Positions 9,231 through 58,064 of a DNA stretch of 64,000 nucleotides are shown one piece after another; within the stretch, counting starts at the first letter, position 1; the number at the start of each line of letters is the position of its first letter. Source of the DNA: Iphione sp. A-MEVVRFRX5 (taxonomy: Eukaryota); assembly GCA_976226885.1 (NCBI GenBank), contig OZ320314.1, positions 76,508,001 to 76,572,000 of the forward strand, in the 5' to 3' direction. A program made the position numbers and the translations under genes. The notes beneath the pieces are model-generated. The model was not told the origin of the DNA. It saw only the letters and a program-made list of their open reading frames with translations, and did no database searches.

Positions 9231-12067
9231 GTTAGGTACTGCCTATTCTTCGAGTTGAAGCATTATAGATTCCAGGGTTTACACATTTTTCTGTCGAGAG
9301 GGGTTTTAACCTGAACATCATGGATTACCGCTGTTAAGTGCTGACCATTAAATCTACCCATTCACAGTTAGTTCATCAGACAGATGTGGTTTCCATGGAT
9401 TTTCCACGGGCTCAGTCGGTAGTATAATCTTATTTACTTAACATGAATTTGAGATTTGGATATTTTCATTTATCCTATTATTAATCATGCACACGTGTTG
9501 TCCTTACGGCCCACTGACGCAGGTATGTGTATATGTGTGCTCGAAATCCCCCGGTACATCAAAACATCTCAACGTCTCGTTTGCTTTTTTATTATTTTTA
9601 CGATCACTATTGAATTTGTATTTGTGAGTGATTTGGAAACATTGAAAATAACACTCCCTCCTTATTTCATACGTCAAGTCGCAGCATGATTCGCGGGTTT
9701 CCCCGCACATAGTACTGCAGAAGGTACATTCCCACGTTAGATTGCAGGGCTAGTGCTAAAAACATGAATGCGGTCGTGTTCCTTGGGTGCTGGCCTGAGC
9801 CCAGGCCCTTGCCGTCTCCATCCCCAATGCTGGCCGCAAGGAGGGCGTTTCCCCGCCGGAGGATCAGGTATACCGCCGTGCAGATAGTGTTGAATAATGT
9901 TCGCAGGTGGTGTTGGGGTTGGCGGCGGCAATGATGGTAGTAGTGGCGGAGGCTGTGGCGGAGAGTGATAATCTATGGAACAGTGGCAGCCCAGACACGA
10001 GCTAATCAATATCGGCCATGCTAATTATGCTTCGGTGAGCTGCTCGCCCCGATGCCACTTCTATCGGCGGAGTGTGGTTCACTCCCGATAGGTGGTGGCG
10101 GGCGGCCGCTCTTCACCCGCCCGTACAAACGCGAGCTGAATAACTCGAGCTGCTCCCCGACCATCTACTCGTCCAGCTCTCTTCGCCACCCACAGTGTGG
10201 CTCCATGTAGAACGCCGCCTTACTAGCAAGGGCTCGACTGCCTGCCCGGAACTAGTTCTCCGACAGAGCGCTGCGTTGTCACCTACACACAGAGGCACAG
10301 ACATCCTTACCTACATGCGTATTGTAGTCTGGTCAGAGACACTCGTCATAGAAATATGCACATCCTCTCAGAACGTTAAATGAGTTCTGTTGATATTATC
10401 CCGTACTTACTTAATAGCATTATATTTTGAGATACATGTACATGTAACGCACGCTTTTAAATTTTGCCAATGTGCTCTGAATTGAGCTCCATATATAGGT
10501 CCATAGATTCATGGGTGTATCTACATCAATGATATTAGTATACACAAAAATAGTCACCTGTGTGCTATGAATGAATATTCATGTATGTACATGTATATGC
10601 ACATGTATCTATGCACATGTACATACATTGTCCAAGAGGACAATGCAGCGACTAGGTATAAACAGACATTACCCACCCCCCACCCTGAATCTCCTTTCCT
10701 GTGTCCTTTCTGTACTTATATCTCAACCCAGCCCATCATGCTCTGTAATTCTGTGCACTAAGGAACAATCAGCGACTACAAACTCCATCTTTGAATTATG
10801 CATAAAATATCTACCCCAGGGTGCGACCGCCGTGAATTCCTGTCCATGATGGATGTCTCTTCCCATGGTATTTTTCACGTATTTATATAGTTACAGTGGC
10901 CTCTGATTTGTGTGTCCGGCGGCAGGACCCCAGGGATCACTTATTGCCTATTCAGATACGCAGCACCAGTACCAGACGTTTGCCATTCAAACTCCATTGT
11001 TCCCGTCAGTTGGTATTATCGTTCGTTTATTGGCAGCGACGGTATATTTACTTTTACACAAGTTAAAATGTTTATGAACACATTACCGCTCTTCACGAAA
11101 TGTTCTTGACGTCACTATAGAAATAGTAATCTTGTTACGCGATCATAATGCGTTACCCAACTCTTTAATCGAGTTGTATTCCGTATGCAGTACCATTCAT
11201 TTAGCAGGTAGGATGATATGCAGTTATCGGTCAGTTTTGAAAATTTGAATCGCCTCATGACCAACTCCTCACTCCAACCACATACATGTACATGGACATG
11301 TACTATTATCCTAACCACCCACCCATACCGTAAAGCCCCCTCCCACAAACCGCTACCAGGCGGACAGCCGCCGACAACTCCGACGATGGCGCTCTATCTA
11401 GGCGTGACCCGAAGTGAACTGAGACCGAGGTACAATCTCATCATTGTACATGCTGCCTTCTACTCCTCCTGCTCCTCCCCCAGCTCGTCCTGCTGTCGCC
11501 TAACCCCATCCCAACACCTCCCCGAGCCACCCCCGCCCCCATGCCCCTCGCCCCCTCCCCGTTAGCCCGCCGCCTCGTCCCGCCTCCCGCCGCCCACCGC
11601 CCCGGTGCCATGCCCGCACCGGGCCACCTTGCTAGGCGGAGCCCGTGCGTGCAGGCGCGGAATACGGTTCCATGTTGTTGCCGGCGGCGCGGGAGGTGCC
11701 CAATGCTATTGAATGATGCTGCCGTTTGTAGCAGTGCCCCAACTGCTACTGGTCCTTCTGCTACGGCTGCGGCTGCTGTTGCTGCTACTGCTTCTGCTGC
11801 TGGAGCAGCTGTTGTTGTTTCGAATGTCGGCCCTCCTCTTAGTCGGCATCAATCCAGAAACACCCAGTGTACACTACAGAAGTACTAGAATTGAAGTTAT
11901 TTGTAGGAGGGAAACGTTGACACACTGGCGCAAAAACAGAGAGAAATCTCAGCTCAATTGCTTGTGATGATGACCTATTTTAAATTCTGGATGATAAATT
12001 ACACAAAACATATTATAGTGACAAGTCTCGCAGGCAGTCAACCACGGATCCAAGCCAAGTTTGACCA

Positions 12068-12167
12068 TAATGTGGGCCAATTGGAAGGCGTTATAATTGG
12101 CGGTCATTGACGGGGGGCGGGGGTGGGCGAGCGAGGGTCATTCTCGCTTGCCTCGTGGTGCCGACAA
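12068..12167 (+). repeat. Split direct repeat A1 (identical copy A2 at 16342-16441)
   Basis: 100-bp exact repeat containing CCAAT and TTATAA motifs. Confidence 0.95.
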
Positions 12168-12168
12168 C

Positions 12169-13230
12169 ATGTCGTCCAGTCAGGCCTCCTCAGACCCGGT
12201 TTCTTCACAACATGTCATGGAACAAGTCCTTCTTAGGATAAGTACCATGGAGCAGAACATGGCGAAGCTCCTTCAAGACAAGGAGAAGAAGAAGAAGCGG
12301 TCTAAGATAACCTCGACGAAGACCAAAGTCAAGAGTAAGGTGGAAGTTGTACAGCACCCACCTACGTCTGCGCCTCGTGGGCCGGTGGTCACCGGTGCTG
12401 ACCCCGGTTCACTGCCCGCAGTAACCACGACCCATGGTCAATCATACAGCCATGCCCAGCATGATATGAGGGACGGCGCGGGCTACCACCGGGATGACGA
12501 CGATGACAACGACTATCATGACCTGGACGACAGAGTTACCCATGCCATGGAGATGGAGCGTGTGCACTTCGGGCGCTCTTCAGGTAAGAAGTACACTGAT
12601 CCCGTATCACGTCACTCACACCGGCATTGGCGCCCCTATTTATCGCTCCCCCGCGAGATGGTTAGGCAAGTTAAGAAGCGCGACAGCACTGACGACCTCA
12701 CTATGCCAGAGTATGTCTGTGCCCTCGCAGCTCGTCTTCGGGATGCCCTCCCAAAAGGATCAGAGTTGAGGCTTTTTGCTGCACATATATCAGAAGTCTG
12801 TGAAGACGCCACCCAGGCTACCTGGAATGGAGTACGTGAGTGGTCATTATCTACCATCGACCGGACCGAGCAGGAGACGCTTGCATGGCACAATCAAGAT
12901 GAGATACAGCGCATGCGGAATCGCATGTCTGTAACAAAGGGCAGCATGAGCGAGGACCAACGTCGACATCCATGCCCCCAGTACAATTCTGCTTTCTGTC
13001 ACGAATCAGATGGCCATGCTGAGGGCCCTTATACGTACTGGCACAGGTGCGCCGTGTGTTGGTACGGGGTTGCAAACAAGGAATGCCAACACGCGGCCAC
13101 CGTTTGTGCCAGAAAAGCTCGAATGCGCCCGAAGGACGACCCACAACCTCACAAGCAAGAAAAGGCTGCCGAGCAGCGGTGGAAAAGGGGAGACAAAGCC
13201 AATGACAACAAGGATAATGCAAAAAACTAG
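12169..13230 (+). CDS. Gag-like ORF1 of the YR retrotransposon
   Basis: ATG immediately after repeat A1 (MSSSQASS...). Contains a coiled-coil/basic N-terminal part, a LTMPEY...W.GVREW core and a Cys/His-rich C-terminal motif (CPQYNSAFC...HRCAVC...CQH...C). Confidence 0.85.
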   Translation: MSSSQASSDPVSSQHVMEQVLLRISTMEQNMAKLLQDKEKKKKRSKITSTKTKVKSKVEVVQHPPTSAPRGPVVTGADPGSLPAVTTTHGQSYSHAQHDMRDGAGYHRDDDDDNDYHDLDDRVTHAMEMERVHFGRSSGKKYTDPVSRHSHRHWRPYLSLPREMVRQVKKRDSTDDLTMPEYVCALAARLRDALPKGSELRLFAAHISEVCEDATQATWNGVREWSLSTIDRTEQETLAWHNQDEIQRMRNRMSVTKGSMSEDQRRHPCPQYNSAFCHESDGHAEGPYTYWHRCAVCWYGVANKECQHAATVCARKARMRPKDDPQPHKQEKAAEQRWKRGDKANDNKDNAKN

Positions 13231-13289
13231 CCCCCCCTTGTCGACGCTCTGACAGCGGGGGTGGGTATTATTGTCTCTCATCCACCCCT

Positions 13290-15203
13290 ATGAACCAGGA
13301 CTGTCCAATGGATTTTGATTCTATCTCTCCGATTCAACTTCGGATGCCTGTGCCCTCGCCCAGCGGTACATCCGATTCGGCCCAGGGCCCTGCCCCATGC
13401 AAGGTCGACATGTCTGCAGGTGGGTCGCCCATACTCAGCACCCCCCATAGCGCGGACGAGCCGGGATACAGTCCCCTAGCTCTACTCAACCGTGAACTGT
13501 TGGCCCACAACAGGCGAACAGTATGGCCTGCTGCACACCACGCCCTTGACCAGCGCTTGGCCTATATATATACAATTGTAGCGGGCACAGGACATACCAA
13601 TGCTCAGGCTGCATGCCTCCCACTTAATGCGCTGCCAGCACATAAATGGTCAGTTCATGCTACAGGTCACCCAGACGATGACATGGTGTTACGAGGGATA
13701 ATGTATGGCTTCCCACTGGGTTATGAGGGTCCGCCGCTGCTTCGACCTCCCCCTGCCAACCATGCCTCAGCACTCGCCTACCCCGATGCGATCAGGGAAT
13801 ATTTGAAAACTGAGGTTGCTCTCGGGGCGATTGTAGGCCCCTTTTCATCACCGCCGTTTTCTCCCTGGTTTGTAACGGCACCATTAATGACGCGGCCGAA
13901 GAACGACGGTAGTCGTCGCGTCATTGTTGATCTCTCATATCCAGAGCGATCAAATGTCAACCACTTCATCCACAAGAATGTCATCGATGGCCGTGAGTAC
14001 CAACACACACTGCCAACCGTGGATGATCTAGCCCAAATCCTTTCGGACACCACAGCCCCTCCATACTTGGCCGTCATAGACTTGAAGCGCGCATATCGCC
14101 ACTTCCGGGTCTGCCCTGCAGATTGGCCACTCTTAGGCATTATCGTCGATGGGCACTATTATTTCGATACAGCACTACCATTTGGTGCTAGATGCTCGTC
14201 GATGGTGATGCAGCATGTGGCAGAATTCATCATCAGGGCGGCCCGGGAGATCGGCATATGTGCGCTCATGTATCTCGATGACATAGTTATTGTGTCAGCG
14301 AATGAACAGATCGCATGGATCCATTACCATCAGATGATCAACTTGCTGGAGGACCTTGGCTTGACAGTCGCACGCGCTAAGCTTCAGCCTCCATCGCGCT
14401 GCATTACGTGGCTTGGCATTACAGTCGATACAGAGATCGCCCAATTGTCAATTCCCGTACAAAAGATCCAGGAATATGTAACGCTCTTCAATGACATTTG
14501 TGCCAAACAGTCCATTTCTAGGAAGCAGTGCCAGGAAGTCACCGGCAAGGTGAATCATATGGCCCGCATCATTCGCCCTGCTCGCCTCTTTATGTGCCGT
14601 CTGCTCTCAGCACTCAGGGGGGCTAAGCTGGATACCGTCGTTATTGACTCTACAGTTCGGGCAGATCTGAGATGGTTGGCTACGTTCCCGACGACATGCA
14701 ATGCTCGGTCGTACCATCCGGACAGACCGATAACAGTAACGATCGAGGCGGACGCCTGCCTGGTGGGTGCTGGTGCTACTGATGGACATCGCTGTTACTG
14801 CACAAGATGGTCTCCGGCTATGGCGAATAACCATCACATTAGCCAGCTGGAGGCCATCAACTGTCTCATGGCTGTGCGCACATTTCTTCAGTTCCTGTCC
14901 CCAGACGATCACATTCTAGTCAAGTGCGATAATCGCGCTGCAGTCGACGTGATGAATTTCGGACGGGGCAGAGACTATGTTATTAATGCTTGCGCACGTG
15001 CTTTGTGGATGGAATCCTATGCAACCGGCATCCTAATTACATTTGTGCATACTCCTGGCATACTCATGGATACGGCAGATGCACTAAGTCGCGCTTTCAT
15101 CTCCGGGGCAGCGAGGGAGAGGGCGCGCCAATGCATACAACGACATCACCTCAATGAGATTGCTGTCAACCCCTTGGCATCAAACTACCATCCGTTCATC
15201 TGA
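13290..15203 (+). CDS. Reverse transcriptase / RNase H ORF (frame open back to 13227)
   Basis: RT motifs RVIVDLS, DLKRAYRH, LPFGARCS, YLDD, WLGI. RNase H motifs EADAC...HISQLEA...CDN...ADALSR. Confidence 0.95.
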   Translation: MNQDCPMDFDSISPIQLRMPVPSPSGTSDSAQGPAPCKVDMSAGGSPILSTPHSADEPGYSPLALLNRELLAHNRRTVWPAAHHALDQRLAYIYTIVAGTGHTNAQAACLPLNALPAHKWSVHATGHPDDDMVLRGIMYGFPLGYEGPPLLRPPPANHASALAYPDAIREYLKTEVALGAIVGPFSSPPFSPWFVTAPLMTRPKNDGSRRVIVDLSYPERSNVNHFIHKNVIDGREYQHTLPTVDDLAQILSDTTAPPYLAVIDLKRAYRHFRVCPADWPLLGIIVDGHYYFDTALPFGARCSSMVMQHVAEFIIRAAREIGICALMYLDDIVIVSANEQIAWIHYHQMINLLEDLGLTVARAKLQPPSRCITWLGITVDTEIAQLSIPVQKIQEYVTLFNDICAKQSISRKQCQEVTGKVNHMARIIRPARLFMCRLLSALRGAKLDTVVIDSTVRADLRWLATFPTTCNARSYHPDRPITVTIEADACLVGAGATDGHRCYCTRWSPAMANNHHISQLEAINCLMAVRTFLQFLSPDDHILVKCDNRAAVDVMNFGRGRDYVINACARALWMESYATGILITFVHTPGILMDTADALSRAFISGAARERARQCIQRHHLNEIAVNPLASNYHPFI

Positions 15204-15221
15204 TCGCTTGATTCTTTGCAG

Positions 15222-16168
15222 ATCCGACGCATGAGTCACTTCTCCGGTCAGCTGAGGCGCGACAGGCCCAAGCATTTCGGCCTGGGTCAAATGCCAATCG
15301 AATGTCCGCGGTCAGGAAGTTCCTACGTTTCGCCCTTCGTTTCAATGTAGATCATCGACACCCTACGCCACAGCAAATTTGCGTATTCATAGAGGACTGT
15401 TCCCGCTACATGACAGCTGCCTCCGTGGCAAACACTTTGTCTGCCCTTAAGATACACTCTGCTAACCTGGGCCGGCCTGTGGCTTCATGGGAATCAAGAC
15501 TTGTCCGCAACGCGCTGCGCGCGTTGGCACGACAGCCGCAGCCCTTGCCGCGTCGCCCTGTGGTGCGCGGCCAGACCTTCATGCAGGTGCTCCATCGCAT
15601 GCAAGTCTCTCCCTTACATCGTACGGTGGCAGCGGGTTTAGCCATACTCTTCGTGACCATGCTGCGACAATCATCCGTCTTCCCGAGTACATCGAGGGCG
15701 TTCGATCCTGAACGTCAGCTCAGGCGATGCGACGTTCGGCTGTCGGCAGCTACGCTACAAGTCACCATAAGATGCACTAAGACCCGTCAGGTCGCTGGGC
15801 GACAGGAGGTGCTCACTGTCCCGCTTGTTCTTGATGGACTAGATGCTGCCCCGTACATATGCTGGCTACTCGCTGCGACGTCGGGGTCGTCCGCTACCGC
15901 CCCACTTTGTGCCTTCCCCGGTGAGACTGACGCAATACCAATCTCAGTCGTCAGGCGTTTGTGGGCTCAGGCGTTTAAGTCTCTCGGTTACCAAGACCCC
16001 CTGCCTACTATTCATGGCCTCCGCAGAGGGGCGGCGCAGGCCCTGCATCTGGCCGGAGTGTCGACATCTGAACTCATGCGCAGGGGGGATTGGAAATCGG
16101 CGGCAGTGTGTGCATACGTTCCCCAGCTTCGGCCAGCTCATGTTATTGCGGCTAAGAAACAACAGTAA
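15222..16168 (+). CDS. Tyrosine recombinase (integrase) of the retrotransposon; probably a spliced second exon
   Basis: Catalytic set MLRQSS (R), TKT (K), HGLRRG (HxxR), GDWKS (W), VCAY (Y). The frame is open from 15224, upstream of the first ATG (15302), just after the acceptor ttctttgcag ending at 15221. Confidence 0.88.
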
Positions 16169-16176
16169 CTTTGGCA

Positions 16177-16346
16177 TCTGTCCCTATATGAACTTGATCG
16201 GCAGCTCGCAATACCATGAAATATTCACTTTTTACATTTTACTTCATCTTATTCGTATTTTATCTACTTACCACTACTGTATTTTATGATGTCTGTTCTA
16301 TTGTATTAAAATCTGATTTCTCCACCCCCGCCTCTTGTCGTTAATG
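16177..16346 (+). repeat. Split direct repeat B1 (identical copy B2 at 16488-16657)
   Basis: 170-bp exact repeat containing an ATTAAA polyadenylation-like signal. Confidence 0.95.
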
Positions 16347-17799
16347 TGGGCCAATTGGAAGGCGTTATAATTGGCGGTCATTGACGGGGGGCGGGGGTGG
16401 GCGAGCGAGGGTCATTCTCGCTTGCCTCGTGGTGCCGACAAACCGCCCACCCACCCTACATTCTCTTGGACACGACACTCATAGGGCTCTGTCCCTATAT
16501 GAACTTGATCGGCAGCTCGCAATACCATGAAATATTCACTTTTTACATTTTACTTCATCTTATTCGTATTTTATCTACTTACCACTACTGTATTTTATGA
16601 TGTCTGTTCTATTGTATTAAAATCTGATTTCTCCACCCCCGCCTCTTGTCGTTAATGAGGGGTGACCACCGGGGTAAGTCTTAAGACTATACATGTACAC
16701 CCATATCTGGTGTGGGTAATATGTTCATAAGAGATATTTTCACTGAAAAAAAAAACTTTTATGATGAAACGTATATAGGCAATAGCAAAAACACAGGTGC
16801 CGGGACTTCAAAGATATACACTGGGGTAGGTGCAATGTCTGGACAGCTGCTCTAATCACACAGTAAACCACTACAATACATAGCCTAGGCTGACCTTAAC
16901 AGTAATTGCTATTAAGTTTCATACATTCAAATTTAAGATCTAACATGGTCACTGCGAAAAGAAGTAATCCATTAGTTGATATTTATAAAAATCCATTCTG
17001 ATATTAACCAAATGTTATTTGTGGGTGGTCACTTGGCCATCTGAAAGACCAATCCGCTATTTAGACCAGAGATCTCTGTTGAGACCAAGCTTGAAAAGGA
17101 CAAAATACAATTTTTCCATATTATCTGCTCTTAAATAATTTTAATCCTCAGACAAGACCACTTTTGAAAAAGATGTGTGGTATTATTTGTATAAAAATAA
17201 TAATAATAATATTAATTTAGTCCTGATAATTCACTTCATGAAGGCATTTGTCATACCAGGATAGATACATCAAAATAATGGAGTATCTGGATATTACACT
17301 TAGTCTTGAGTAATGTATAGTCATTTAAGAGTTACAATTAAAATTTTACAGGACATATAAATAATGAATTGTTAAAGCTTGAAAGGTCCTTATTATATCT
17401 TTGTGATCAATACACAAATCTTGATAATATCCTGAACTGATTGATAGTCTATTTACACTACCTATATAAAACGTTGCCTGAAAGTAGTACGGCAATGGGG
17501 GAGAGGTCTCATGCCTGTGAGACTCTTTCCAACCCTCCTTATTTGCCTCCTTTCACATATTTTTGTTGATACTTTTTCAAATCACATACAGTAGCACATG
17601 TTTTCTATCACAAAATGCAAAACAAAAGAAAATGAACCAAAAATTGTGTTACTTTGGACTACTTTGGACAGGGGAAGAGACAAAGAGAGTATCACTACGC
17701 CTGTCTGCCTGTAAACAAAAGACTGCAGTCTGTACTTTGACCCCTCCCCCCCACACACACACTTCTACAAGGGAGGGATGAATCGGTGCTGAAGGCGCT

Positions 17800-20420
17800 T
17801 GTCCCCTATAAAAATGGTCAAGATTGTTCCATTGCTTTATTGCCAGGTAGTGCACAGAATGTTTTATCAATTCAGTCCTTGGTTTAGGGATGCACAATAG
17901 ATTGACATCATGTTGTTTGGTGTTTAGCTGGTCTTGTCTCGGCAGGAGATAGAGCAAGTTCATATTATGTACTAAGTTTACAGTGAAATATTTCCTTTGA
18001 TGATTTACAGTCATCATGTTATATAGCATATGCAGGTCCTGGCTAGATAGCATGATCTTACTTTTATGATAGGCTTTTTCAGAGCTATAGATAATTGCTA
18101 CGGCTCAATTTTGCAATCTCTGTAACTGCAACAGATCTCTTTTGCTGTAGCAACTGATTAAGACCGTCAAGTAATCAACCTGTGGTAGGATAAAGCCCTT
18201 GTACAGCCTCAACAAATAAACAGTATTTAAATACCTTTTCAATCTATATAGCATACTGATATTCTATGTTATTTTCTTTGTTACCTTGAGTACCTCAGAT
18301 TTATATTTCATATTGCTTTCTAGAATCACACCTAGATACATGTAGGAGTTAACATATTCTATCGCATCATCACCAGCCAGTATTCTGTGATCCGGTGTCA
18401 CATCGGTTACATATACAGGCGAGATTTTGCTGGCGTTCATTACCAGGCAAATTTGAGCACACCACCTAACAAGATTTTGCATAATAGTTTGAGTCTTATT
18501 AGCTAAAGCACAAAGGTCTTTGGCTGAGATCAAAATCAAGGTATCATCTGCAAAGAGGGTAACATCTGCTTTAACATGCATTGGTAGATTATTAATATAC
18601 CATTGACAGAGCAATATTGTACCCTGTTTGATAGGTAACTCTCAAACGGTTTTATTGTTGTTTCTGCAAATCCAAATTGGTGGCATAGCTTTCTTATTAG
18701 TATATCATGGGTTACAGTGTCAAAAACCCTTTTGAGGGTAACACATACTACATTGCTATTTAATTTGGAATTCAGATTGGCATAGATTTTGTTCGTGACA
18801 CTAAAGATTGCTTCTCTAGTACCACGGGATGGCCTAAAGCCAAACTGTTGCTCAGTTAATTTCCTTTCTTTTTCGAGGTAGTCATATAATTTATTGTAGA
18901 TGATTTTTTCAAAGATTTTCGAAGGTGCAGGTAATAATGATATTGGTCTGCAATTGTCCATGAGCATTGTGTCACCCTTCTTGAATTAAGTGATCACTTT
19001 GCAGTCTTCCATTTGTGTGGAAATGTTGCAGTGCTTATTGCAGTATTCAAGAGGTGAGTGAACTGTTTTAAACATGAGTTTTGACAGTGCCAAAACAGTT
19101 TAGTCGGAATACCATTAATGTTGCAGTTCTTGGTTTTTCTTGATAGCTTTAATGGCATTGGCAACATCCAACTCATGAATTTTCCTGAGTTTGAATTCTA
19201 TACCTGACATATCATGTTGAGAGCTCGTATAGTAATCACAGTCAGATAGGTTTTTAGTGATTGCTGTTGCAATGTTGGTGAAGTGGTTATTAAATGCATT
19301 TGTCACTTTATGCGTGGGAATTTCTGAGCCATCCTTGTTGATCCTAACATTTGAGGATTCCTTTCTTTGTTGACCATATAGTTCTTTAATGACTGACCAA
19401 TACTCTGCTCCGTTCTTTCTACATTCATGCGATTTCTTTTTATAATAGAAAGATTTATGTGCTTTTATGTTTTTTTTACCTGGTTCTTTAGATGACTAGC
19501 TATTCTTTTAGTGTGGGTATCTTTGCGTTCCTTTGCCTTTTTAAGATAACGGTTTTTCAATCTGATGCTTTTCAACAATTCCTTGGTAACCCAAGGTGAC
19601 TTGTTATTACAAGAAACTCTTTTGGTGATTATAGGAGTAACTTTATCCAGGGTGCTCACCATGTTGTCTTCAAAGTTTTGCCAAATATAGTTCACATCAG
19701 TGCTGTTGTATGACCCATACCAGTTGCTGGACTTAGGGGTACCAGTGACACCATTTAGAATTTCTTGGCTGACACTTCTGTAATGTATGGTTTTTGTTTA
19801 AGACAAGTTTGATCTACGATTGTTGATCTTCTTGCACACGTTACATAGTGATCAGATAGGCCTAAGTCCATCATACCACTCTTAATGATATGCTTGCAAT
19901 TACTAGAGATTGTATCAATAAGAGTAGACTTCTGCACAACCCTGGTTGGTGATTGTATATGGTTAATCAAATATTTCTCGCTAAGCAGCTGTACAAATTT
20001 CTTCTTATTGATAAGGCCTTACATAATAGATCTATGTTAATATCACCAGTTATGTTAATATCTCTTCTATGATTGATGGAGTTTAGTACCTTGTTTAATT
20101 TCACAGTGAGGTTATTTATGGAGCCATTGGGAGGACAATAAACATTGATGATAACAGTTTTTTTCGTCTTTTTTGGTTGCATTTCTATTACTTGCACCTC
20201 AACATCTGTATCCACAAGATTAAGAGTGTGACCATATTCATTAGCAGAATATTCCTCCTGTAGTAAATTAGAAGTCCCCCACCATTCTTGGTCCTAACAG
20301 AGGTATCATCACTATTACATCTGTCAGGCCTAGATATATTATATCCTGGTAGCTGTAAGGAACAGGTTGGCACTTTATTGTTAAGCCAGGTTTCCTGAAT
20401 TGTTATAATATGAGTTTATT
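17800..20420 (-). pseudogene. Decayed LINE (CR1/L2-group-like) ORF2: APE endonuclease plus RT
   Basis: Ordered minus-strand fragments: LPGYNISRPDR...GGGLLIY, INVYCPPN, ITGDINIDL, SPWVTKELL, NCRPISLLPAPSKIFEK...QFGFRP, LFADDT, YMYLGVILE, PRTELIKHSVHYLAIKQWNNL. Many frameshifts. Confidence 0.9.
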
Positions 20421-38605: not shown

Positions 38606-40540
38606 TCATTCACTGGTCGTGGTGCCAGGACTGCCGCTGGCGGACGTGTCCTCGCCGCCTATGCTCTCGGGTCCGCCGCCCACAGGAGCTATGGAACCCG
38701 TTCCCGGTACCGAGGTGACCGGCGCCATAGGGTGAGGTGACGGCGCCAGCGTGTAGTCGAGCGCGTTCGTGTCCGGATTGTCCTTGTGACGAAGCAGGTG
38801 ATTGCGCAGGTAGACGGGCTTGTGAAACTTCTGGCCGCAGATGGTGCACTCGTGCCGCTTAGGCGGCTCGCGTCCCTTGTGGATCTTCTGGTAGTGCACC
38901 TTCATGTTGTGCCGGTACGTGAAGGTCTTGTGGCAAGCAGGGCAAGGGTACGTAGGGCGCTGGTAGTTTTTGTCGTGCAAGGGGATGTGCTCGCGGAGGC
39001 GCTGAGAGCTCTTATAGAATTTGCCACACACGGGGCAGCAGTAGGCGTCGGCGCTGGGCGAAATGATAAGATTGGACGTCTTCTCAGCGGTCAGCCCAGG
39101 GCCGACGGCGTGGGTTGTCATCATGTGTTCCTGTAGCGCGTCAGCGTTAGAGAACCCGGCGAAGCAGGCCGAGCACTTGTAGAACTGGTCGTCGTAGTCT
39201 TCCTCCATTCCTTCGGGCACGCTGCCTGGTGGTCGAGGCGGCCAGCCCGGCATGTCCTTGGCCGTGGACCGTGCTCCTCCACCACAAGCAGTTCCCCCGC
39301 CGGACCCACCGCCGCCGACACTGCGGTCTTTGGGTGGCATGATGGGGGTAGTAGTATAGGTCTTGGATGGTTCGGGCGTGTAACGTTCCTTGTCGCCGTC
39401 AGTATCGCCGAGCACGCCAGCCAGCGCCTTACTCTGTGTGTCTTGGATGCGCCCCTCAAGCAGCGCCAACTCGACGGCCGCTAGGCGGTAGTTCTGTGAC
39501 ATGAACGGCGGTCGCAGCGCCATCTCGGGGTCGGGCGCGGGCGAATTTTGCGAGGTGCGAAAATGCGGTCCGTACGGGAGACCAGACCCCAACAACTGGG
39601 CTGATATCATACCCTCGGCCGTCATGCCCATCTTAGGGTCGGCGTACTTGGCATTGTCACGCATGGAGGGCGTCTTGTTGGCAAGAGCTTGCGTCATTGC
39701 TTGTAGTGGATTTATGCTCGGCTTGGCGCCGCCACTGGTCGTCGAGCCATTGTGCTCGCCATAGCTGGGTAGCGGTTTCAGGTCCCCGGTGACACCGTCG
39801 TCGGTGGCTCGACTCGACGGTCGGCCGTTCTTGCCGCTCAGGTCTTCAATGTTTCCGCCTCCCGAGCGCGGTAGGCGTGGAGAACCGGGACCCTGGGAGG
39901 TCTCGTCCTCGGACACGGCAATGGCCAGCGTGTTGTCGCCGTCGTCGGCGTCGCGGTAGGATTCAGCGTCCTCCTTAGCGCCGTCGTACTTTTCAAGGCG
40001 TGGAGGATCAAGTTCCTTCTTCAGGTTGAGCGGCGTGTCTTCGCGCGGCGGCGGTTCGAGTGGGTTGGCTGAGCGACGACCGCCATGGCCGCTCTGTCCC
40101 TCCAGCTGCTGCATGTGAGCAGCCATCTGCTGGGCGAGATGAGCGCCTGCCACCATCTGGTGGTTCAACGTGGCCGCCCACTGCGCATAGGCGATCTGCC
40201 GCTGCTGCATCTCCTCGTAGATTTTGAGATGGTTCTCCTCGGTTGACTGACCCGTCAGGCCGAAGGCCTTCTGCAAGTCCACCTTCGACACGGGCCCATT
40301 ACGCATCGACTTCTGAGCTTGCACTTGCAGGCAGAACTCTTCGAGCACGAGATGAGCCTTCTTCATACACTCCCATTCTCCTTGTAACATACAGATGCCG
40401 TGCGATGGTTGCACGCACAATACCCCGGCCCGCTCTTGCAATGTTTGAAACAAGGCATCTCTGCGCCCCTCTAATGTCTCAACCACTTTGGGCGACAGCA
40501 GTGCTGTCATAACGGAGAACATCTTGCCCGGTGGCACAAC
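38606..40540 (-). CDS. Large terminal exon of a C2H2 zinc-finger protein (4 fingers) with an N-terminal alpha/beta domain
   Basis: Acceptor tttacttccag (40543-40541), phase 0, first Met at 40522. Fingers: CSACFAGFSNADALQEHMMTTH, CPVCGKFYKSSQRLREHIPLH, CPACHKTFTYRHNMKVHYQKIH, CTICGQKFHKPVYLRNHLLRH. Open for >640 codons with coding-like GC content. Confidence 0.9.
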   Translation of the reverse strand, partial: VVPPGKMFSVMTALLSPKVVETLEGRRDALFQTLQERAGVLCVQPSHGICMLQGEWECMKKAHLVLEEFCLQVQAQKSMRNGPVSKVDLQKAFGLTGQSTEENHLKIYEEMQQRQIAYAQWAATLNHQMVAGAHLAQQMAAHMQQLEGQSGHGGRRSANPLEPPPREDTPLNLKKELDPPRLEKYDGAKEDAESYRDADDGDNTLAIAVSEDETSQGPGSPRLPRSGGGNIEDLSGKNGRPSSRATDDGVTGDLKPLPSYGEHNGSTTSGGAKPSINPLQAMTQALANKTPSMRDNAKYADPKMGMTAEGMISAQLLGSGLPYGPHFRTSQNSPAPDPEMALRPPFMSQNYRLAAVELALLEGRIQDTQSKALAGVLGDTDGDKERYTPEPSKTYTTTPIMPPKDRSVGGGGSGGGTACGGGARSTAKDMPGWPPRPPGSVPEGMEEDYDDQFYKCSACFAGFSNADALQEHMMTTHAVGPGLTAEKTSNLIISPSADAYCCPVCGKFYKSSQRLREHIPLHDKNYQRPTYPCPACHKTFTYRHNMKVHYQKIHKGREPPKRHECTICGQKFHKPVYLRNHLLRHKDNPDTNALDYTLAPSPHPMAPVTSVPGTGSIAPVGGGPESIGGEDTSASGSPGTTTSE

Positions 40541-43500
40541 CTGGAAGTAAATGCAAGACGATGTACATGTATTGTCAACATCTGTAGTAATGTACATGTA
40601 CATTTATATGAGCTGTTAATGAAGGTTCACATTTGTATTAAACAAAATGGTGGTCCGTCATAAACTAAACTCGCAATACATCAAAATACTAGGATAACAT
40701 AGAAATACGCGACAAATCCCATCGTTTTGTAAGCAGAACAACAATGAACATGAGAATATTACATTTCTAACAGCTTACGCAGTGCATTTGAAAAATGATC
40801 CCATTGAATTATTTTCGAAAATTGTATTTTGGGCTTAATATTTTTTCAGTTTAGAATCCCATCTAACATAATTCGTATCTAACGACTGTACCGCTCATTG
40901 ATCGACTATTACAAACATCTAGCAACCAAATGATGTTAAATACAGCTGAGATAGCTTGTTCAGCTGTTAGTGTATGCTATAAGTTAATAGTTAATGAATT
41001 TCTTTAAACCATTTCTCATCAAAGGCTAAAAATCGGCGGGAACCACTTTGTTTCAATATTTCCGATAAATACCGATGGGATAGAGACGGAGCACGATTTC
41101 GACATTATGTACTGAATAAAATCATTAACCATTGAGAAGTTATGACGTATAGCCGAATACATTTCGTCTACTTTCAACAAGGAAACATCATTCTTGGCAT
41201 GCAATAAGGTATATTTTCGAAAATGACATCCTTTCCGTACTTAGCATTTAGGATATATTCGTGCGGCAAAGATCAAGGATATAGGCATGAATGACTGCTT
41301 TTGTAAATGCTTCCTCTGGACCGATAAGGCGATGTACGTTAAATTCCTGTTTCAGAAGGTCTTGTCTGAACATGAACATCCTAAATGCTTTTCATTTCAA
41401 ACAACATGATGAATATTCAATTAAGATAAACAATAACAATCATATGCACGATATACAAACAGGCACAAAGGGAATGTGGCAGATATAGATCGTGATGACC
41501 ACGTTCAACAACCTCGCATGCAAATCAGAGTCAGAAATCTGTGTAATGCTATCTTCACGAGTCGCCCCACCGGTCGCTGGCTGTGCCCTGGTCGGTGGGC
41601 ACAAAGAACTCGACACAAAACAAGACGTGCGACAGGCAGTTGAACCCTAACCTTCTCGTGACAGCACCGTTTACGGGGGTCATAACTCACCATTATTAAG
41701 TCTTAACATGTAACCAGCCAGCCTGTGTTCACCTTGCGGTACAAAGCGTGTGCCATGCACGCACCAATGCACGTTGCGTGATCGCCTGCCGAGTAACTGT
41801 TCTCACCGTGTTCGTTATCTCCCAAGTGTGCCTCGTTAGAAATTGGGTCAGACGTTTCACGGCCGTCGTCAGACGGGACCGCATGTCACGGCAACCCAAC
41901 ATGCCATTGTCTCACTCTCACACACGCCCGTCTTCCTCCCCGCGCTGAGCTTACTCCGGTAACGGGCCACCTCTTAGACAAGACATGCCTTGTAACAACC
42001 AAGCCGCCGAGTCAACTCAGCAAAATGATTTAGGTTAATGGCTAGACTCACGGCCGCGGCTAAGGAGACCGTTTGGTCGATAGTTTTTGGCGGCAGCAGC
42101 GGCACATGGTTCACGCATAGACGGCGGTTGCTGATCAAAAGCCTCGGGCAGCATCACTGGCGCTTGACAAGGTCCTACTCGGCGGTGTTCCCTCGCTAAA
42201 ATCAACCACAGAAAGAGAGGAGGGGCGGCTTTGTAATGGCATTAAACAGCCAATAAACCTGCCCTAGTATATGCATAGCTCATGTATAATGCCATGTTAG
42301 TATGTTGTGACTAGCGGTGACTGGAATCCATGACAAACCATTGTGATACTTTGTCATTCCGCATTCGGAGCATTGTGTTTCGCTCCCGTATTATCGCTCA
42401 GCAGCAAAATTTGCTTATCCTGTTCGGCGCTCGCCTGACATTTTGCAACGGTGATAGGGCTCGTTCGGGAGCTTGTGGGAAGACAAAACATTGTACTTAC
42501 CATTTGACTGCCTCTAAGTTCAATTCCCTACACATTAACGGCCCCAGTGCGACATTTTGCTACATCCTCCTTTGTCTGCCTAGCGCTGAGATGCATGACA
42601 TGTTTGCACTTGTTGACCCGACGGTATAGTGAGTGTGGTGCGCGCGGCGCTCGGCGGCTAACTACCTGTTCTAGCGATTCGCGCCACTGTGGCTAACAAA
42701 GGTAGTCTCCTCCATACATGATGCGCACATGGGCACATGCCTCCCGACCCACATCCTGCTGGGGCGGCCGCCGACTGGCCCTATGAGCAGTCAGGTTCAG
42801 TGGAGGGGAACGAAGGGGGCAGACAGCACACACCGGTGAGACATGTTGATGAGCAGGGCTCAACTGGACAAAGGCCAGAGGGTTGTGACATCGGTCACCA
42901 CCCTACTCTGACACGGTGACCTCTGCAGCCGGCAGCCACTGGGCAGACGGCCGCCCTCTGTGTCCACTCTACCCCAACCATGCTGGGGGCTCAAAATAGG
43001 TCCCAACCTCTGACCAAACCATTAAAAATTCACTACCCCTAGGGATCGCAAATTTAGGATGAAACTCAACCAAGTGGTTTGGCCCTGACGGTAAGAATGT
43101 TCTTCGAATGTTTGGGCGATAAGAATGATGAGATGAAAGTTTATTTTCCTAAATGAAATATTCTCTCCTCGAGGTCATCTTGAGCACGTGGATAGTGATC
43201 AGAACAGTTGTCCGACAGCCTCTCGGCCAGCACCCGTCCGTGGTGCGTCTGCATGACCCTTGTCGTCTGAGTTCTTATTTTAGCCATGTCTGCCATTACC
43301 ATGACACTGAATCTGAAATTAGGCCCCGCGTCTCAGTGGCTGCCCTCAGACATTGGCGGTCTAGACTCGTCTCCCGAAATAAAAGATGTCCAATAAAACG
43401 GCATGCAAACAACTTTAAACATCTGAGCTTAGTCAGTCACCTGGCGCTAAAACTCACCTGGCTAGATGTTGGCGTTCAAATAGATGGGGTACTTGGACGT

Positions 43501-51500: not shown

Positions 51501-53625
51501 CCTCTGCCTCTGTCCCTGTCCCTGCCTCTGCCCCTGCCTCATGCAGGGTCTTCCTCACTAGGCCTGGAGCTGGGCCTGGAGCTGGTCCTGGCTCTGTATC
51601 CAACTCTGCTTCTGTCACCATGGGCTCAGGAACAGAGGGCTTCAGGCACATGATGTCTTTGGACTCCTTTGTGCAAAAGTCTCTGATGTTCTTAAACAGA
51701 TACAACTGTCTCTTGGTAGACAAACCAGGGGAGGGAACAGGTGCAGTAGGGTCCCTGGGGACTGCTAGGGGGTCAACATTTAACATCTTGAAAGTGTTTG
51801 GCTGGCTGTCTGCATACTCACGGAAAGAGATAACCCCAGGGTTTTGGTTTGAGAACTCAAAATGGTGAAGTTGCTTGATACCTTGCAAACGTCGATGAGA
51901 GGAGGTAAAAGGAAAGCTTGCCAGTCATAGGTTGGGACATGGACATTCCCAGACTCATCGCCAACAAGTTGGGGAACATTGACCTGATCCTGGGTACTCT
52001 TCAGTACTGTCTGAGATAACTCGGATAGGCTAGATACTGACTCATGTCGAAACTTTAGCAAACCAAAGCACCAGTCTGGGGCAAATTTCGTGTGGCCAGT
52101 AATAAGAAAGTTCAGAGTTATTGTTTGGTGCCGACCAGTCAGGACCCTCCACATGAGATATGCTAGCACCCAATTGTTCTTGTTCTGGCCACTGCAAATG
52201 TTACGGTGCAGATCCATAGAGCATGACCCCAGATCAAACATGTGAAAATAGTGGTGCAAATACGAGATTACAGCATTGGATCCCTTGCTCCCACAGTGTT
52301 CCTCATCTATAAGATAGTTGACCTGCTTGGGAATAGCCTCATTACACACCTCAAAGATACCCAACTTCCGTGGGACTAGAAAACAAAGTGGCCTGGGCTG
52401 CATGGGGGAAGGGGGGAGGTAGACCTGCTGGGCATAATCAAAACTGATGTGAGTAGCTATGTCTACAGAACAGGACGGGTGTGGACCAAGGGCTGGGGTA
52501 TTGGCTTTCCAATAGGCAGCCTTGGCATTCTTTCCCATATTCTGATAAAATGTCCTTTCCACTGTTACGACCTGTAAATGTTTCTACTGCTTCTTAAGTT
52601 TTGCTACCTTGACTACCTCAGGGAGATTACTAGATGAGGAAATGTCCCTGTAGTTAAGCTCATATTCCCAACATAGGTCAGTTTTCTGGCAGGAACAAAC
52701 TATATGGGGGAGAAGTTGCAACCACAAATTCCAGAATGTGGAGTCTGTACTCAGACTCCTCCATAGCTTGACAATACAGTTTGTAGATGTCTGCCTTAGT
52801 GGCAGACGAGGGGAAGAGGAGAATATCATTGCGCTTGTGGGTAGCTACATGGCCAGGTAGGACAAGGGCATTGGTCTCTGCATATGAGGTGATGAACCCT
52901 GCAACTCTTTGGATGTCGGTGAGGTGGAGGATTTTGGTTTTTGACTGTCTGCCACCAGCCCTCTTGATACGGGGGACAACTCTGTTGTCCTTATACCATT
53001 GAATAATGTTGGTGAGTTTGTGTTGGCTGATGCTGGAAGGTAAAGTGAAACACCCTAAATATTTAACCAAAAGAGTAAGCCATAAATACAAGTACATGAA
53101 GGTTGTAACGTCTAATTGGTGGGTGGTTACATACTCCATGACTCCTCTGACATACTTATCTATTAACTCATACTGTTAGCACTATAAATACATGAAAATT
53201 ACATTTCATCATTAAGGTACCTGTAAGGAAATAAGTAGAAAGATGAGGGATACTCATGCATACATAAACTTAAAGGTGTCCCTGCAAATGACCTTGGAAC
53301 TAATCATGTAGTGACTGTGTGGAGCACATCTCTCATGCTTCCCCCTTTCCCCCTTCTTCCACACTGATGTCATGACACTTATGTCTGTCACCATACTTAT
53401 TATGCCTTGGAGTAGCATGTCCTTTACCCCTAGAAGAGATAGGTATACATGACATCTCATCAAGATGGATAAGATTGACATAGTATTGTTTTTTTCTGGC
53501 AAGGGTGAAACTGATTAATTTAATAATACTTATGATTTTCCACATGTCAAATTGAAGTGATCTTTGCAGTTACAAATCTTCATGAAGAATTGCGAAATGG
53601 TCATCAGGTTTAGCAATGGAGTAGA

Positions 53626-56024
53626 GGTATGAGTCCCAGGTTTTGATGCGATTTGCCAAGGGCTGGGACGATAGTTCTAATATGGTTAAGAGTGACCCCG
53701 CTATGTTTTCAATGTCCCAGAGGCATCTTTAAACCTGCAACAAATCCCTAGGGAAAAAGCCATCCCAGAATATGAAACGAAGCCTTCCATTGGATGTTAT
53801 GAGCAAGGCGGAAGCGGAAATGGTATTATTTGATTTATTTGGCGGGGAAGTAACCATGGCGACTGCTGATGAGACGACAGCGAAGATGTCTCTGCTACGA
53901 GGAAAAGTGTGTATGCTCGAAGGCAAAAACGTCGTGATTGATGATGAATACACACTCCCGGGGAAGAAATACAAAATGTACGATGTGCGAGAGGTTGGAA
54001 ACGGGAAGAAAAGCAGTGTTCGGGGCGACCAGCTTAAATTCCGCGATGAAGCAACTTTTGACATTGGGTTGGAGAGGACGACGAAGATGATTTCACCCCC
54101 GAAAGTCTAGCTACGAATTGCTTTTACATGCCCGAGCAGGCGGAAATCGATAAGATGAAAGGCGAGGTTAGTCGCAAGAGTACGCTGGAGCAGACAAAAT
54201 GGGCAGTAAAAATTCTGCGAGGTGGTTATCAGTTTTGGGGGGGTGATTATATGACTGGATAATATGGGTCGATTTCTGTGTGAAAAGCTGGAAATAACTA
54301 ATCATATTCACTTTCTTTGTTACAGAATGGCTACTGACCGTGGACAAACTGTTGGATTTCGAGCAACTACCTGAAAAGCAGCTTGCGGAAATCCTGGAGG
54401 GTTTCTATACAGCGGTTCAGACAAAAAACAGGGAAATGTATTCCAAGAGTGCGCACAAGAATATACGCTGTGGTATTCAGAGGCACTTGCAGGCACCCCC
54501 ACATAGTCGCAATATAAACATAATGCAGGACATGGCTTTCCGTCAAGCCAACCTTGCCTATATGGGCTATATGGCAAAGATAAGAATGGCTGGAAAAGAC
54601 AAAAGCGCACACAAACCCCTCATCGAGCCGGAGGACATTAACCTACTTCATGAAAGAATTTTCACTGACACCCCAACAGGGCTACAGAGAAAAGTGTTTT
54701 TTGATATCCTACTGCACTTCAGAGGGCGGGGGAGGGAGGGTTTGCGCGAGCTGACCCGTGACTCATTTGTCATCTCCAAGGATGCAGCTGGCAGTGAATA
54801 TGTGAGCATGCGATACAATGAAGTGGAAAAAACACGTAGTGGGCTCAAGCATGACGAGGAAGATGTCTACAAAACCATGTATGCCCTACCTGAGGATGAA
54901 TCCCGATGCCCAGTGCATTCCCTGCGGAAGTATCTATCCCTGCTGAATCTGGCCTGCTCGGCGTTTTTCCAACGTCCGAAACGCAACTATGACAAGCGAG
55001 GAACACTTTGGTACGATAATATGGCTGTAGGGGTTAACACCCTGTACAGCATGATGGCGTCAATGTCCAAGGAGGGAGGCCTTTCTCGTATATACACGAA
55101 CCACTGCATTCGTCGGACAACTGTCACCACTCTCGACCAAGCTGGATACTCCGCAGATAAGATCCAGAGTGTAACTGGGCACAAGTCCGCTGATTCATTG
55201 AAAGCATATCGTGGATTGCCCAACAAGAGCGTCAAGAAGGGGATGTCGAACCTCCTAACGACTTATGGAAAGGAGAACCGTGATAATCCAGACAAACAGA
55301 AGAAACACGATGACAAAGACAGCGGCGTAGTAGTGGCACCGGCTGGTCCGGGTATCGCGGCCAGGGTTGACACCGAGGGAGCGGGTACATTGGAGAAAGA
55401 CACGATGCCGTTGGTTGTAAACACATCTGTAATGGTTAGGAAGGATGACATCTTGCACTCCTTGTTCTCTGGAAACACGTCGCTTAATCAGTGCACGTTT
55501 AACATCCATTATGGAAAATAAACAGTAAATTTTGTGTGGAGACGGACAACGACCAGGTTCCTTACACGTGTGGAGATACGCTAGACCGGAAGTGCGAGCT
55601 TGATGGTAGTTTTTGGATATTTCTGTTTTTTACGGTTACTATCACTAAAAAGCTGACTTTTATACCCAAATTAATACTGAAGGGTAATATTTCATGTTCG
55701 TTTAAGTTTGAAGAAGTTCGGATGTTATTTGCTTGCATCATATCATACTCGACCAATGAGAGAGAGTGACAGTATCGTTGTTGTCAATAAAAAAGCAAAA
55801 TGGTGACCGCCTTCGAGTATGTAAGACACTGCATTCTTTCTTTCTTCAATAAATAATTATATTGCATTTTTAACATATATTTGTAGTGGGGAACTAAATC
55901 AGAACCACGATTAAGGACTTTATGTCGGGAAAGGTCGAGAGTTTAAGCCGCTCGGGCCTCCATGCCGTCCATAATCGTGTAGTCCCAGCCCGAGGCAATA
56001 GCGTTGAAACCTGGGACTCATACC
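53626..56024. repeat. ~44-bp inverted repeat pair flanking YR gene 1 (53626-53669 and 55982-56024)
   Basis: GGTATGAGTCCCAGGTTT (18/18) and GGGCTGGGAC (10/10) are shared in inverted orientation. Confidence 0.85.
53886..55521 (+). CDS. Crypton-type (DUF3504 / KIAA1958-KCTD1-like) tyrosine recombinase, copy 1; one upstream frameshift
   Basis: Exon 1 runs 53886-54221, with an apparent 1-nt deletion near 54070 between ...ATFDIGL and EDDEDDF...FYMPEQ. A phase-1 GT-AG intron lies at 54222-54325, then exon 2 at 54326-55521. Motifs: FYTAVQTKNREMYSK, TPTGLQRKVFF, GRGREG, EVEK, NHCIRRT, TGHKS...SLKAY. An in-frame ATG at 54128 would give a 429-aa product. Confidence 0.8.
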
Positions 56025-56399: not shown

Positions 56400-58064
56400 T
56401 TACTTGTTGAAAGTGATGTTAAAAGTGCAGTTATTCAAAGTGGTGTGGCCACTAAATAGCGACTGGAATAAATCTTCATCCTGGACATTCACTGCCGTAT
56501 TTGTGGTGACCGTTTGGGTTAATTGCAAGTTTTCCTCATCAGAACTCGTTTCGCGGGGGTCCGGCTTCACTGTAGTTATGGCTACTATTTTATTTTTACC
56601 TACTTTGACCAAATCAGCTGATCCAGTTGCGGTGTCTTCGTCCTTGCCATAATTCGTCAGGGCATTCGACATGGACAGCTTCACTTTCTTCGATGGGCCC
56701 CCTAAATAGTGCTTTAGGGACTCCGCGCTCTTGTGGCCCGTTACTGATTGAATTTTTTTGGCACTGTACCCAGCCTTGTCCAAAGTGGTCATGCAGGTGC
56801 GGTGAATTGAATGATTCATATGCACACGGCTGAGCCCTCCTTCCTTGCTCATTGCGGACATCATTCCATATAAACTGTTTACTCTGAGAGGTGCATTGTC
56901 ACACCAAGTGGTCAAGGCTGCATCCACCTTACATTTAGGCCGTTGGAAGAAGGCCTCGCACTGCTCGCTCAACAAAGACAGGTATTTCTTAAACGAAGTT
57001 ACCGGGCAGCGACTAAGATCTGAAGGTAGGCCATACATAGTTTTTTTGGTGTCCTCCTCATCCTTGTTTAACCCACTGCGCATTTTCTCGGCCTCATTGA
57101 ATGACATTGTGACATATTCATGGCTGGCAGCATCATGGACCAACACAAATGAGTCCTTCTTCAGGTAGCGCAATCCTTCCCTTCCACGACGCCCAAAATG
57201 AAATAGGATATCGTAAAAAACCTTTCTCTGCAGTCCAGTAGGGGTATCCCTGGACACTTTTTCGTATAGCAGAGCAATGTCCTCAGTTTTGATCACAGGT
57301 TTGTGGGCACTCACATCTCAACCAGAGGTACGTATTTTCGCCATGTATCCGCTGTACGCTAAATTTGCCTGGCGAAAATCACTGTCATGAAGCAGGTTGA
57401 TGTTACGGGAGTGGGGAGGTAAAGTCAGGTGTTGTTGCAAGCCACATCTAATGTTCTTAAATGCACTCTTGGAGTACATTTGAAACGATTTAGTGCATAC
57501 ACTGGTGTAAAACTTCTCCAGACATTCTGCCAGTTCAACCGATGTCAAATACTCAAAGGCCAGATCGTGTCCGACCGAACCAAGCCAATCTGAAAAATAT
57601 AATGAAAGGGCCATCAATTAACATATGTTTAGTACAGTTTTAAAGTGATTCATTTCTTTCTTTAGCCCATTCGAAGGCACATTCTGTCATCAACACACAC
57701 CTCGAAATTTTTTTACCGCCCAGCGGATTTGGTCGACTGTGCCTTTGTGGTTAACTTCTTTTTTCATTGTGTCCACCTCGCTCTGATCTGGCATGTAAAA
57801 ACTTCCCTTATGTCCATCTAGATTGTTGTTTTCAGTCTCCTCCAAAATATTCGCATCTATTTCACCCATCACATCTAGTCCCAGATTGAAGGTGGCAGCT
57901 GCCTCTCCCACCAGTTCATCGGGACATGTAGTGTGCTTCTCCTTCGTTAGCAGATCTTCCACCTACAGGACGGGGTTATCCAACCCTCTATGAAAGAATT
58001 CATTAATCACTCTGACGTTTCGACCATTTAGGCCACAAAATTTGCCACATCGAGGAACATCCAT
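56400..58064 (-). pseudogene. Crypton-type (DUF3504-like) tyrosine recombinase, copy 2 (pseudogene)
   Basis: ATG at 58064, exon 1 to 57701, phase-1 intron 57700-57590 at the same position as in copy 1, exon 2 57589-56400. In-frame stops at 57965-63 (TAG) and 57320-18 (TGA). HxxR is changed to HSIH. Roughly 60% identical to copy 1 by eye. Confidence 0.85.

Follow-up and report, generated by a model that had tools for sequence, protein, structure and literature searches.

A candidate -1 ribosomal frameshift signal at the gag/pol junction of a Ngaro-like retrotransposon

Background

How does a retrotransposon whose pol gene lies out of frame with gag obtain its reverse transcriptase? The question is raised by a stretch of 64,000 nucleotides from Iphione sp. 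A-MEVVRFRX5 (contig OZ320314.1, positions 76,508,001 to 76,572,000), hereafter called the window, whose own numbering is used throughout. A gag-like open reading frame (ORF) in it stops directly after the sequence A AAA AAC, and a reverse transcriptase (RT) ORF continues in the -1 frame.

According to the available text of a review of frameshifting, -1 frameshifting between gag and pol is common in animal LTR retrotransposons, A_AAA_AAC ranks among the most shift-prone heptamers on mammalian ribosomes, and neither DIRS nor Ngaro elements are mentioned (PMC5009743). [quoted passage not shown] The accessible portions of PMC9210276, PMC4157794 and PMC7192593 describe no gag-pol recoding signal in Ngaro elements, and none appears in those of PMC3266345, PMC3783388, PMC6681497, PMC2632668, PMC13465315, PMC8547959 and bioRxiv 2022.06.16.496473. 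Neither a gag-pol heptamer, nor readthrough, nor a YR intron of Ngaro elements was found in the literature searched; Goodwin and Poulter 2004 and Poulter and Butler 2015 may discuss the overlap. In the original prediction for this locus, made from the sequence alone, such a signal was described as not known to be well characterised for Ngaro/PAT elements.

We argue here that the signal is real, very likely functional and, judged from the amino acids encoded by relatives, conserved across a broad clade of Ngaro-like elements.

Results and discussion

An intact Ngaro-like element

The element extends approximately from 12068 to 16657 and comprises three unbroken ORFs and the repeats A1, B1, A2 and B2 (Table 1). 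No match was obtained for the gag-like ORF in a Pfam search. In pol, RVT_1 was the only Pfam domain detected, and neither a protease nor an integrase domain was found; the part following RT is presumably RNase H, as identified by its motifs. Like nearly all its relatives, pol stops 36 aa past a D-x-L-S-R motif, which leaves no room for a methyltransferase.

Ngaro-like elements are defined by split direct repeats in the arrangement A1 ... B1-A2-B2, by gag, RT/RNase H and YR genes and by lack of a methyltransferase, according to the available text of three sources (PMC9210276, PMC4157794, PMC7192593). PAT-like elements are defined by the methyltransferase domain, which one PAT-derived lineage has lost (PMC4157794, PMC7192593, likewise in part). 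The element shares with Ngaro-like retrotransposons of the DIRS order the repeat arrangement, the gene order gag-RT/RNase H-YR and the missing methyltransferase. Judged by its ORFs and repeats it is thus an intact Ngaro-like retrotransposon, a class assigned by published definitions. The locus had been predicted to be a DIRS-order element of Ngaro or PAT type; the first affiliation stands and the second is rejected for want of the methyltransferase domain. DIRS1-like elements have inverted terminal repeats and an internal complementary region; this identity was rejected as well, as no inverted repeat enclosing the element was found.

No second copy of the element was found within the 64-kb window, and a look-up listed no sequencing run for it, which says nothing about its expression. 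The sequence TAATG is common to both element ends and to the B1/A2 junction (12061-12076, 16646-16661 and 16335-16350, respectively), and the flanks resemble this internal junction, as expected of recombinase-type integration at a similar target.

Table 1. Features of the Ngaro-like element in the window and gag stops of related loci
Feature	Position	Strand	Evidence
Split direct repeat A1	12068..12167	+	100/100 nt identical to 16342-16441
gag-like ORF, 353 aa, Cys/His knuckle, ends Ala-Lys-Asn-stop	12169..13230	+	279 homologues at E<=0.001; Cys/His columns conserved
Predicted phase-1 splice donor CAG/GTAAGA	12581..12589	+	exon end 12583; best donor-like site of gag, crude consensus score
pol ORF, -1 frame, RT (YLDD) and RNase H-like part, no methyltransferase	13218..15203	+	PF00078, E 1.4e-15; located motifs
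Slippery heptamer A AAA AAC	13221..13227	+	in phase with gag; Lys-Asn ends in 71/150 homologues
gag stop codon TAG	13228..13230	+	adjoins 3' side of heptamer; sequence
Predicted stimulatory hairpin	13231..13264	+	inner stem 13238-43/13250-55, outer C/G stem; folding prediction
Predicted competing helix, 10 bp	13257..13289	+	13257-66/13280-89; excludes outer C/G stem; pair probabilities 0.14-0.24 unconstrained
Predicted branch point, pyrimidine tract and phase-1 acceptor (..TTCTTTGCAG/)	15198..15221	+	just past pol stop
Tyrosine recombinase (YR) ORF	15212..16168	+	PF02899, E 3e-4, and PF00589, E 0.014, both under curated cut-off; H-x-x-R and Tyr motifs
Split direct repeat B1	16177..16350	+	173/174 nt identical to B2
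Split direct repeat A2	16342..16441	+	identical to A1
Split direct repeat B2	16488..16661	+	matches B1; element ends near 16657
TGA-CTA gag stops of sister-clade loci	L001, L002, L004, L009, L010, L012, L013, L014, L018, L019, L020, L022		in frame with pol

Geometry of the gag/pol junction

The gag ORF ends with GCA (13219-21), AAA (13222-24), AAC (13225-27) and TAG (13228-30), and A AAA AAC indeed stands in phase, directly before the stop codon, as had been claimed. The -1 frame contains stop codons at 13203-05 and 13215-17 and is thereafter open from 13218 to 15203, including the predicted run of 21 codons that separates the heptamer from ATG 13290. The two frames overlap by 13 nt, nearly all of them occupied by the heptamer. 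Since the -1 frame is closed at 13215-17, a direct -1 shift is possible only inside 13218-13230, where the heptamer sits. The fusion had been estimated at about 1,010 aa; 353 aa of Gag and 658 aa of the shifted part would amount to a Gag-RT/RNase H product of 1,011 aa. AAAAAAC has a single occurrence in the coding region of the element. Two canonical hallmarks of programmed -1 ribosomal frameshifting (PRF) are present, an in-phase X XXY YYZ heptamer and a -1 frame open through to the downstream domain.

Predicted RNA structure downstream of the heptamer

Stimulatory structures of -1 PRF typically sit about 5-9 nt downstream of the heptamer. In the predicted hairpin an inner stem of 6 bp (13238-43/13250-55) is extended, past the bulged C13256, by pairing of C13233-37 with G13257-61. 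The 43 nt that follow the heptamer (13228-13270) fold at -20.9 kcal/mol (z -2.9), a value equalled by one of 200 shuffled sequences. The window contains 477 XXXYYYZ heptamers, counted on both strands, and the strongest 40-nt downstream fold belongs to the one at the gag end (-19.4; the runner-up has -14.3). Nine of 1,980 40-nt windows within the element fold equally well or better, and longer windows at the junction are unremarkable (z -0.5 for 73 nt, -0.26 for 120 nt and -0.85 for 121 nt).

An alternative fold of -20.3 retains the inner stem and pairs 13257-66 with 13280-89; it becomes the minimum once the first five bases 3' of the heptamer are held open. The hairpin exactly as first proposed, taken alone with its 5-nt spacer, has -16.3. 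The predicted fold is thus strong, but two forms of it compete, in which the spacer measures about 5 and about 10 nt, respectively. Of the proposed hairpin CCCCC-TTGTC/GACAG-C-GGGGG, the inner stem occurs in both folds, and the outer part competes with the second helix. This helix could be the actual stimulator or a switch. It stops immediately before ATG 13290 and its energy is nearly equal to that of the outer stem. Folding and pseudoknot predictions had been named as a check, and they gave a divided answer: the 43-nt fold stands out, whereas folds of 73-121 nt are not significant and no loop-to-downstream helix of at least 5 bp, as needed for an H-type pseudoknot, was found in the junction fold. 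An Rfam search of 13100-13400 returned zero matches at E<=5.

Lys-Asn ends of Gag homologues

Conservation of the heptamer was approached through proteins. A word-indexed search with Gag found no homologue, unlike the HMMER search, which yielded 279 at E<=0.001; the best 150 of these were analysed, as amino acids. C-terminal Lys-Asn (KN) is present in 71 of the 150; by chance, 0.7 would be expected given the overall composition and 1.0 given that of the tails. KN lies at most 25 residues from the end in 120 of the 150 homologues, compared with 103 of 1,780 control windows. When only the 137 homologues that reach the last knuckle Cys are counted, 70 end with KN, 113 have it at most 10 residues from the end and 18 lack it in the last 25 residues. 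This regularity is retained between highly divergent proteins: the median identity of 119 compared KN-bearing cores is 26%, and the tails are otherwise unalignable.

The residue preceding the near-terminal KN is also strongly restricted (P 60, S 40, A 14, G 2, T 2, V 1 and Q 1, n=120). It is P, S, A or T in 116 of the 120, and in all 120 it has a codon able to end in A. The eight residues without such a codon never precede a tail KN, yet they make up 31% of tails and precede 28 of 123 internal KN. Such a bias is expected from the pattern N-C-A AAA AAC, and a bias in the two bases preceding -1 heptamers has been noted earlier, in the available part of PMC5009743. Near-variant ends are practically missing among the 150: RN, KD, KQ and KH do not occur and KS occurs once. 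Taken together, this is strong but indirect evidence, read from amino acids, that the heptamer is conserved in relatives of the element.

Gag homologues with a length of 645-2,000 aa were sought and none was found, which is weak evidence given the search tool. Searched viral contigs contained no relative, and the matching clusters in ESM Atlas were exclusively eukaryote-dominated.

A sister clade with an in-frame TGA-CTA junction

DNA of more distant relatives was obtained from scans of metagenomes (21 loci) and genomes (2 loci); 22 of these loci have 23-41% best-segment identity to the RT query, and a 600-nt fragment has 38%. The gag end is included in 15 of the 23 loci, one of which, the degraded L017 (TAG-TGA), was excluded (n=14). 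Slippery sites in phase with gag are absent from the last 30 gag codons of all 14. In all 14 the gag stop is TGA, followed by CTA in 12 (9 CTAG and 3 CTAT), by CTC in L016 and by TAT in L006, and pol continues in the gag frame in 13, L016 being broken there.

These loci are themselves diverse, the 15 Pols compared being 31-82% identical. In a midpoint-rooted FastTree phylogeny of Gag (157 of 164 rows passed the filter, with L022 among those dropped), 11 locus Gags form their own clade (support 1.0), separate from the 146 others. In the corresponding tree of Pol (FastTree, midpoint root, 80 rows, matches shorter than 480 aa excluded), all 15 locus Pols fall into a clade of 26 tips, apart from the 54-tip clade of the window element (0.994).

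Readthrough of UGA-CUA(G) has been shown experimentally in alphaviruses and in the mammalian genes OPRK1, OPRL1, AQP4 and MAPK10 (PMC4132726, available text). The same UGA-CUA context is found in 12 of the 14 loci, with TGA-CTAG in 9, and the likeness concerns these sister-clade relatives, not the element in the window. The sister clade thus likely makes the same Gag-Pol product by stop-codon readthrough, as far as the nucleotide context tells. Relatives without the heptamer, which the original prediction had named as evidence against itself, are literally represented by the 14 distant loci, but these belong to a separate lineage that carries another recoding signal at the same junction. Conservation is accordingly upheld at the amino-acid level by the KN ends and does not extend to these 14 loci with DNA; as a universal signal of such elements the heptamer has to be given up.

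The Gag of L006 groups among KN-bearing Gags, yet its junction (1122-1130) is an in-frame TGA-TAT with no heptamer. L022 and L023, a Ngaro-like element and a fragment, lie on contigs filed as bacterial metagenome-assembled genomes and are likely misbinned eukaryotic DNA. The bases CTA G open the pol frame both in the window (AAA-CTA-G, 13227-13231) and in 9 readthrough loci (TGA-CTA-G); the agreement may be due to chance or left over from a change of one signal into the other.

Other routes to Pol

Pol could also be translated from its own AUG, at 13290 or later, either by reinitiation once gag has been terminated or on a shorter transcript, with the heptamer being incidental. In-frame ATGs are available at 13290, 13308, 13344 and 13410, and gene callers begin every Pol homologue at a Met. 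The start itself is, however, not conserved, the first Met being offset by 72-262 residues (22 of 48 homologues measured), and ATG 13290 has C at -3, A at +4 and 33 ATGs upstream. Initiation at an AUG also leaves unexplained both the 71 KN ends among 150 Gags and the in-frame TGA-CTA of the sister clade, and we regard it as highly unlikely.

The terminal [P/S/A]-K-N might instead be a protein signal of the Gag C-terminus. All conservation data for the window's clade are indeed amino acids. In 49 of the 120 homologues, however, KN is trailed by 1-25 residues, which would mask a terminal protein signal; the conservative ends RN, KD and KQ are absent; and the -1-frame read-outs K-K-L-V, described below, need Lys codons composed of A only. 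A role at the protein level alone thus appears barely plausible.

These read-outs come from the 30 homologues without a tail KN. Two apparently frameshifted copies, P0177 and P0121, read A/P-K-K-L-V at the junction, which corresponds to -1 translation; the window element itself would read C-K-K-L-A. P0177 continues for 376 further residues past the junction, into the N-terminal motif of RT. P0167 and P0185 read Q-K-T, corresponding to +1 translation, and P0186 and P0170 read K-K-R, which is doubtful. P0105 and P0118 keep P-K-N and continue beyond it. A scan of 71 Pol homologues for K-K-L/R within residues 1-320 gave no junction read-outs. The longest contig of 7 of the 18 Gag homologues looked up has exactly the same size as that of a Pol match from the window's clade; all 7 end with KN, their Gag and Pol are separate gene calls, and each pair presumably shares one contig.

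P0121 resembles, fixed in DNA, the form expected if RNA polymerase slipped on the six-A run, so that some mRNAs with one added A would encode Gag-Pol in frame. The A6 run is present and one extra A leads to the same product, but six As are short for efficient transcriptional slippage; moreover, the run is always closed by an in-phase Asn codon and is followed by a strong fold at ribosome spacing. Slippage of the polymerase is, to our judgement, scarcely more than a formal alternative. Splicing of a gag donor into the start of pol is the least credible route of all. In its favour, a CAG that follows a pyrimidine-rich stretch ends at 13298, but this acceptor has phase 0 in the pol frame and the conserved donor has phase 1. 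Among the top 8 acceptors of 13231-13560 a single one has phase 1, and it is weak (9/17 pyrimidines, 2 T); no phase-0 donor scores above 6/9.

Own AUG, protein motif, transcriptional slippage and spliced Gag-Pol therefore each fail one test. The -1 frameshift reading draws support from the geometry of the 13-nt overlap and from conservation of the heptamer-encoded residues in 150 divergent Gag homologues, and on these sequence grounds we hold with considerable confidence that A AAA AAC directs programmed -1 ribosomal frameshifting where gag ends in this intact Ngaro-like element.

A predicted intron joining Gag-N to YR

The YR ORF has its first Met at codon 31, downstream of its conserved start motif. 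A predicted phase-1 intron, 12584-15221, would join the N-terminal part of Gag (Gag-N) to YR in a stop-free frame of 453 aa. The donor column is Gly in 118 of 120 aligned scorable Gags (window included), and in 116 the next residue has a codon that begins with A (G-K/R/N). At the DNA level, each of the 10 loci with a downstream anchor, out of 14 examined, has a phase-1 G/GTAA 19-28 codons before this anchor (G/GTAAG in 9). In 12 of 16 loci the start motif of YR is preceded, at a distance of 16-19 codons, by a phase-1 acceptor; in the window the distance is 18 codons. The splice signals and their phase are thus kept in the clade of the window and in the sister clade. This retention of donor and acceptor supports the earlier suggestion of three proteins from one ATG, the third being the predicted spliced Gag-N/YR protein of 453 aa.

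A proposed plan of expression

On unspliced RNA, the majority of ribosomes would halt at TAG and release the 353-aa Gag. In a minority of ribosomes, held up by the structure 5-10 nt further on, tRNA-Lys and tRNA-Asn would slip back by one base, and these ribosomes would go on to complete the Gag-RT/RNase H fusion. Spliced RNA, lacking the phase-1 intron, would separately give rise to the Gag-N/recombinase. One start codon would in this way serve Gag and both enzyme products, and the enzymes would be linked to Gag sequences. We think it probable that this is the common plan of Ngaro-like elements, Gag, recoded Gag-RT/RNase H and spliced Gag-N/recombinase being made from one start codon, and recoding having switched between A AAA AAC and UGA-CUA at the same junction.

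With -1 gag-pol frameshifting of retroviruses and LTR elements the locus shares the shift-prone in-phase heptamer and the short overlap; the predicted downstream structure and the proposed production of Gag and Gag-Pol from one start also resemble those systems. Unlike there, no protease or integrase was detected in pol, and it is splicing that would supply the enzyme for integration. The locus also differs from the proposal of Poulter and Butler 2015 as quoted: between pol and YR there is a predicted splice acceptor and no overlap, and the candidate frameshift signal sits at gag/pol instead. If true, the shared plan replaces a recombinase reached by frameshifting from pol.

The surprise is limited, since the frameshift mechanism is classical; its use in Ngaro elements is what was not found in print. 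The conserved gag-pol heptamer, the probable readthrough alternative of the sister clade and the conserved signals of a predicted intron are exact and testable, and they would allow frameshifting to be compared with readthrough in nature, at one homologous junction. They are also relevant to annotators, as Pol and YR proteins entered in databases with a Met start are probably incomplete.

Other features of the window

A broken LINE-like reverse-transcriptase element (18264-20293, minus strand; RVT_1, E 1.7e-12) adjoins the Ngaro-like element. Further along, a C2H2 zinc-finger ORF of 665 aa (38606-40603, minus strand) lies within a GC-rich patch, and a DUF7869 ORF occupies 51780-52583 (minus strand). 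Two DUF3504/phage-integrase ORFs, at 54298-55521 (plus strand) and 56400-57317 (minus strand), face each other and are CryptonA-like.
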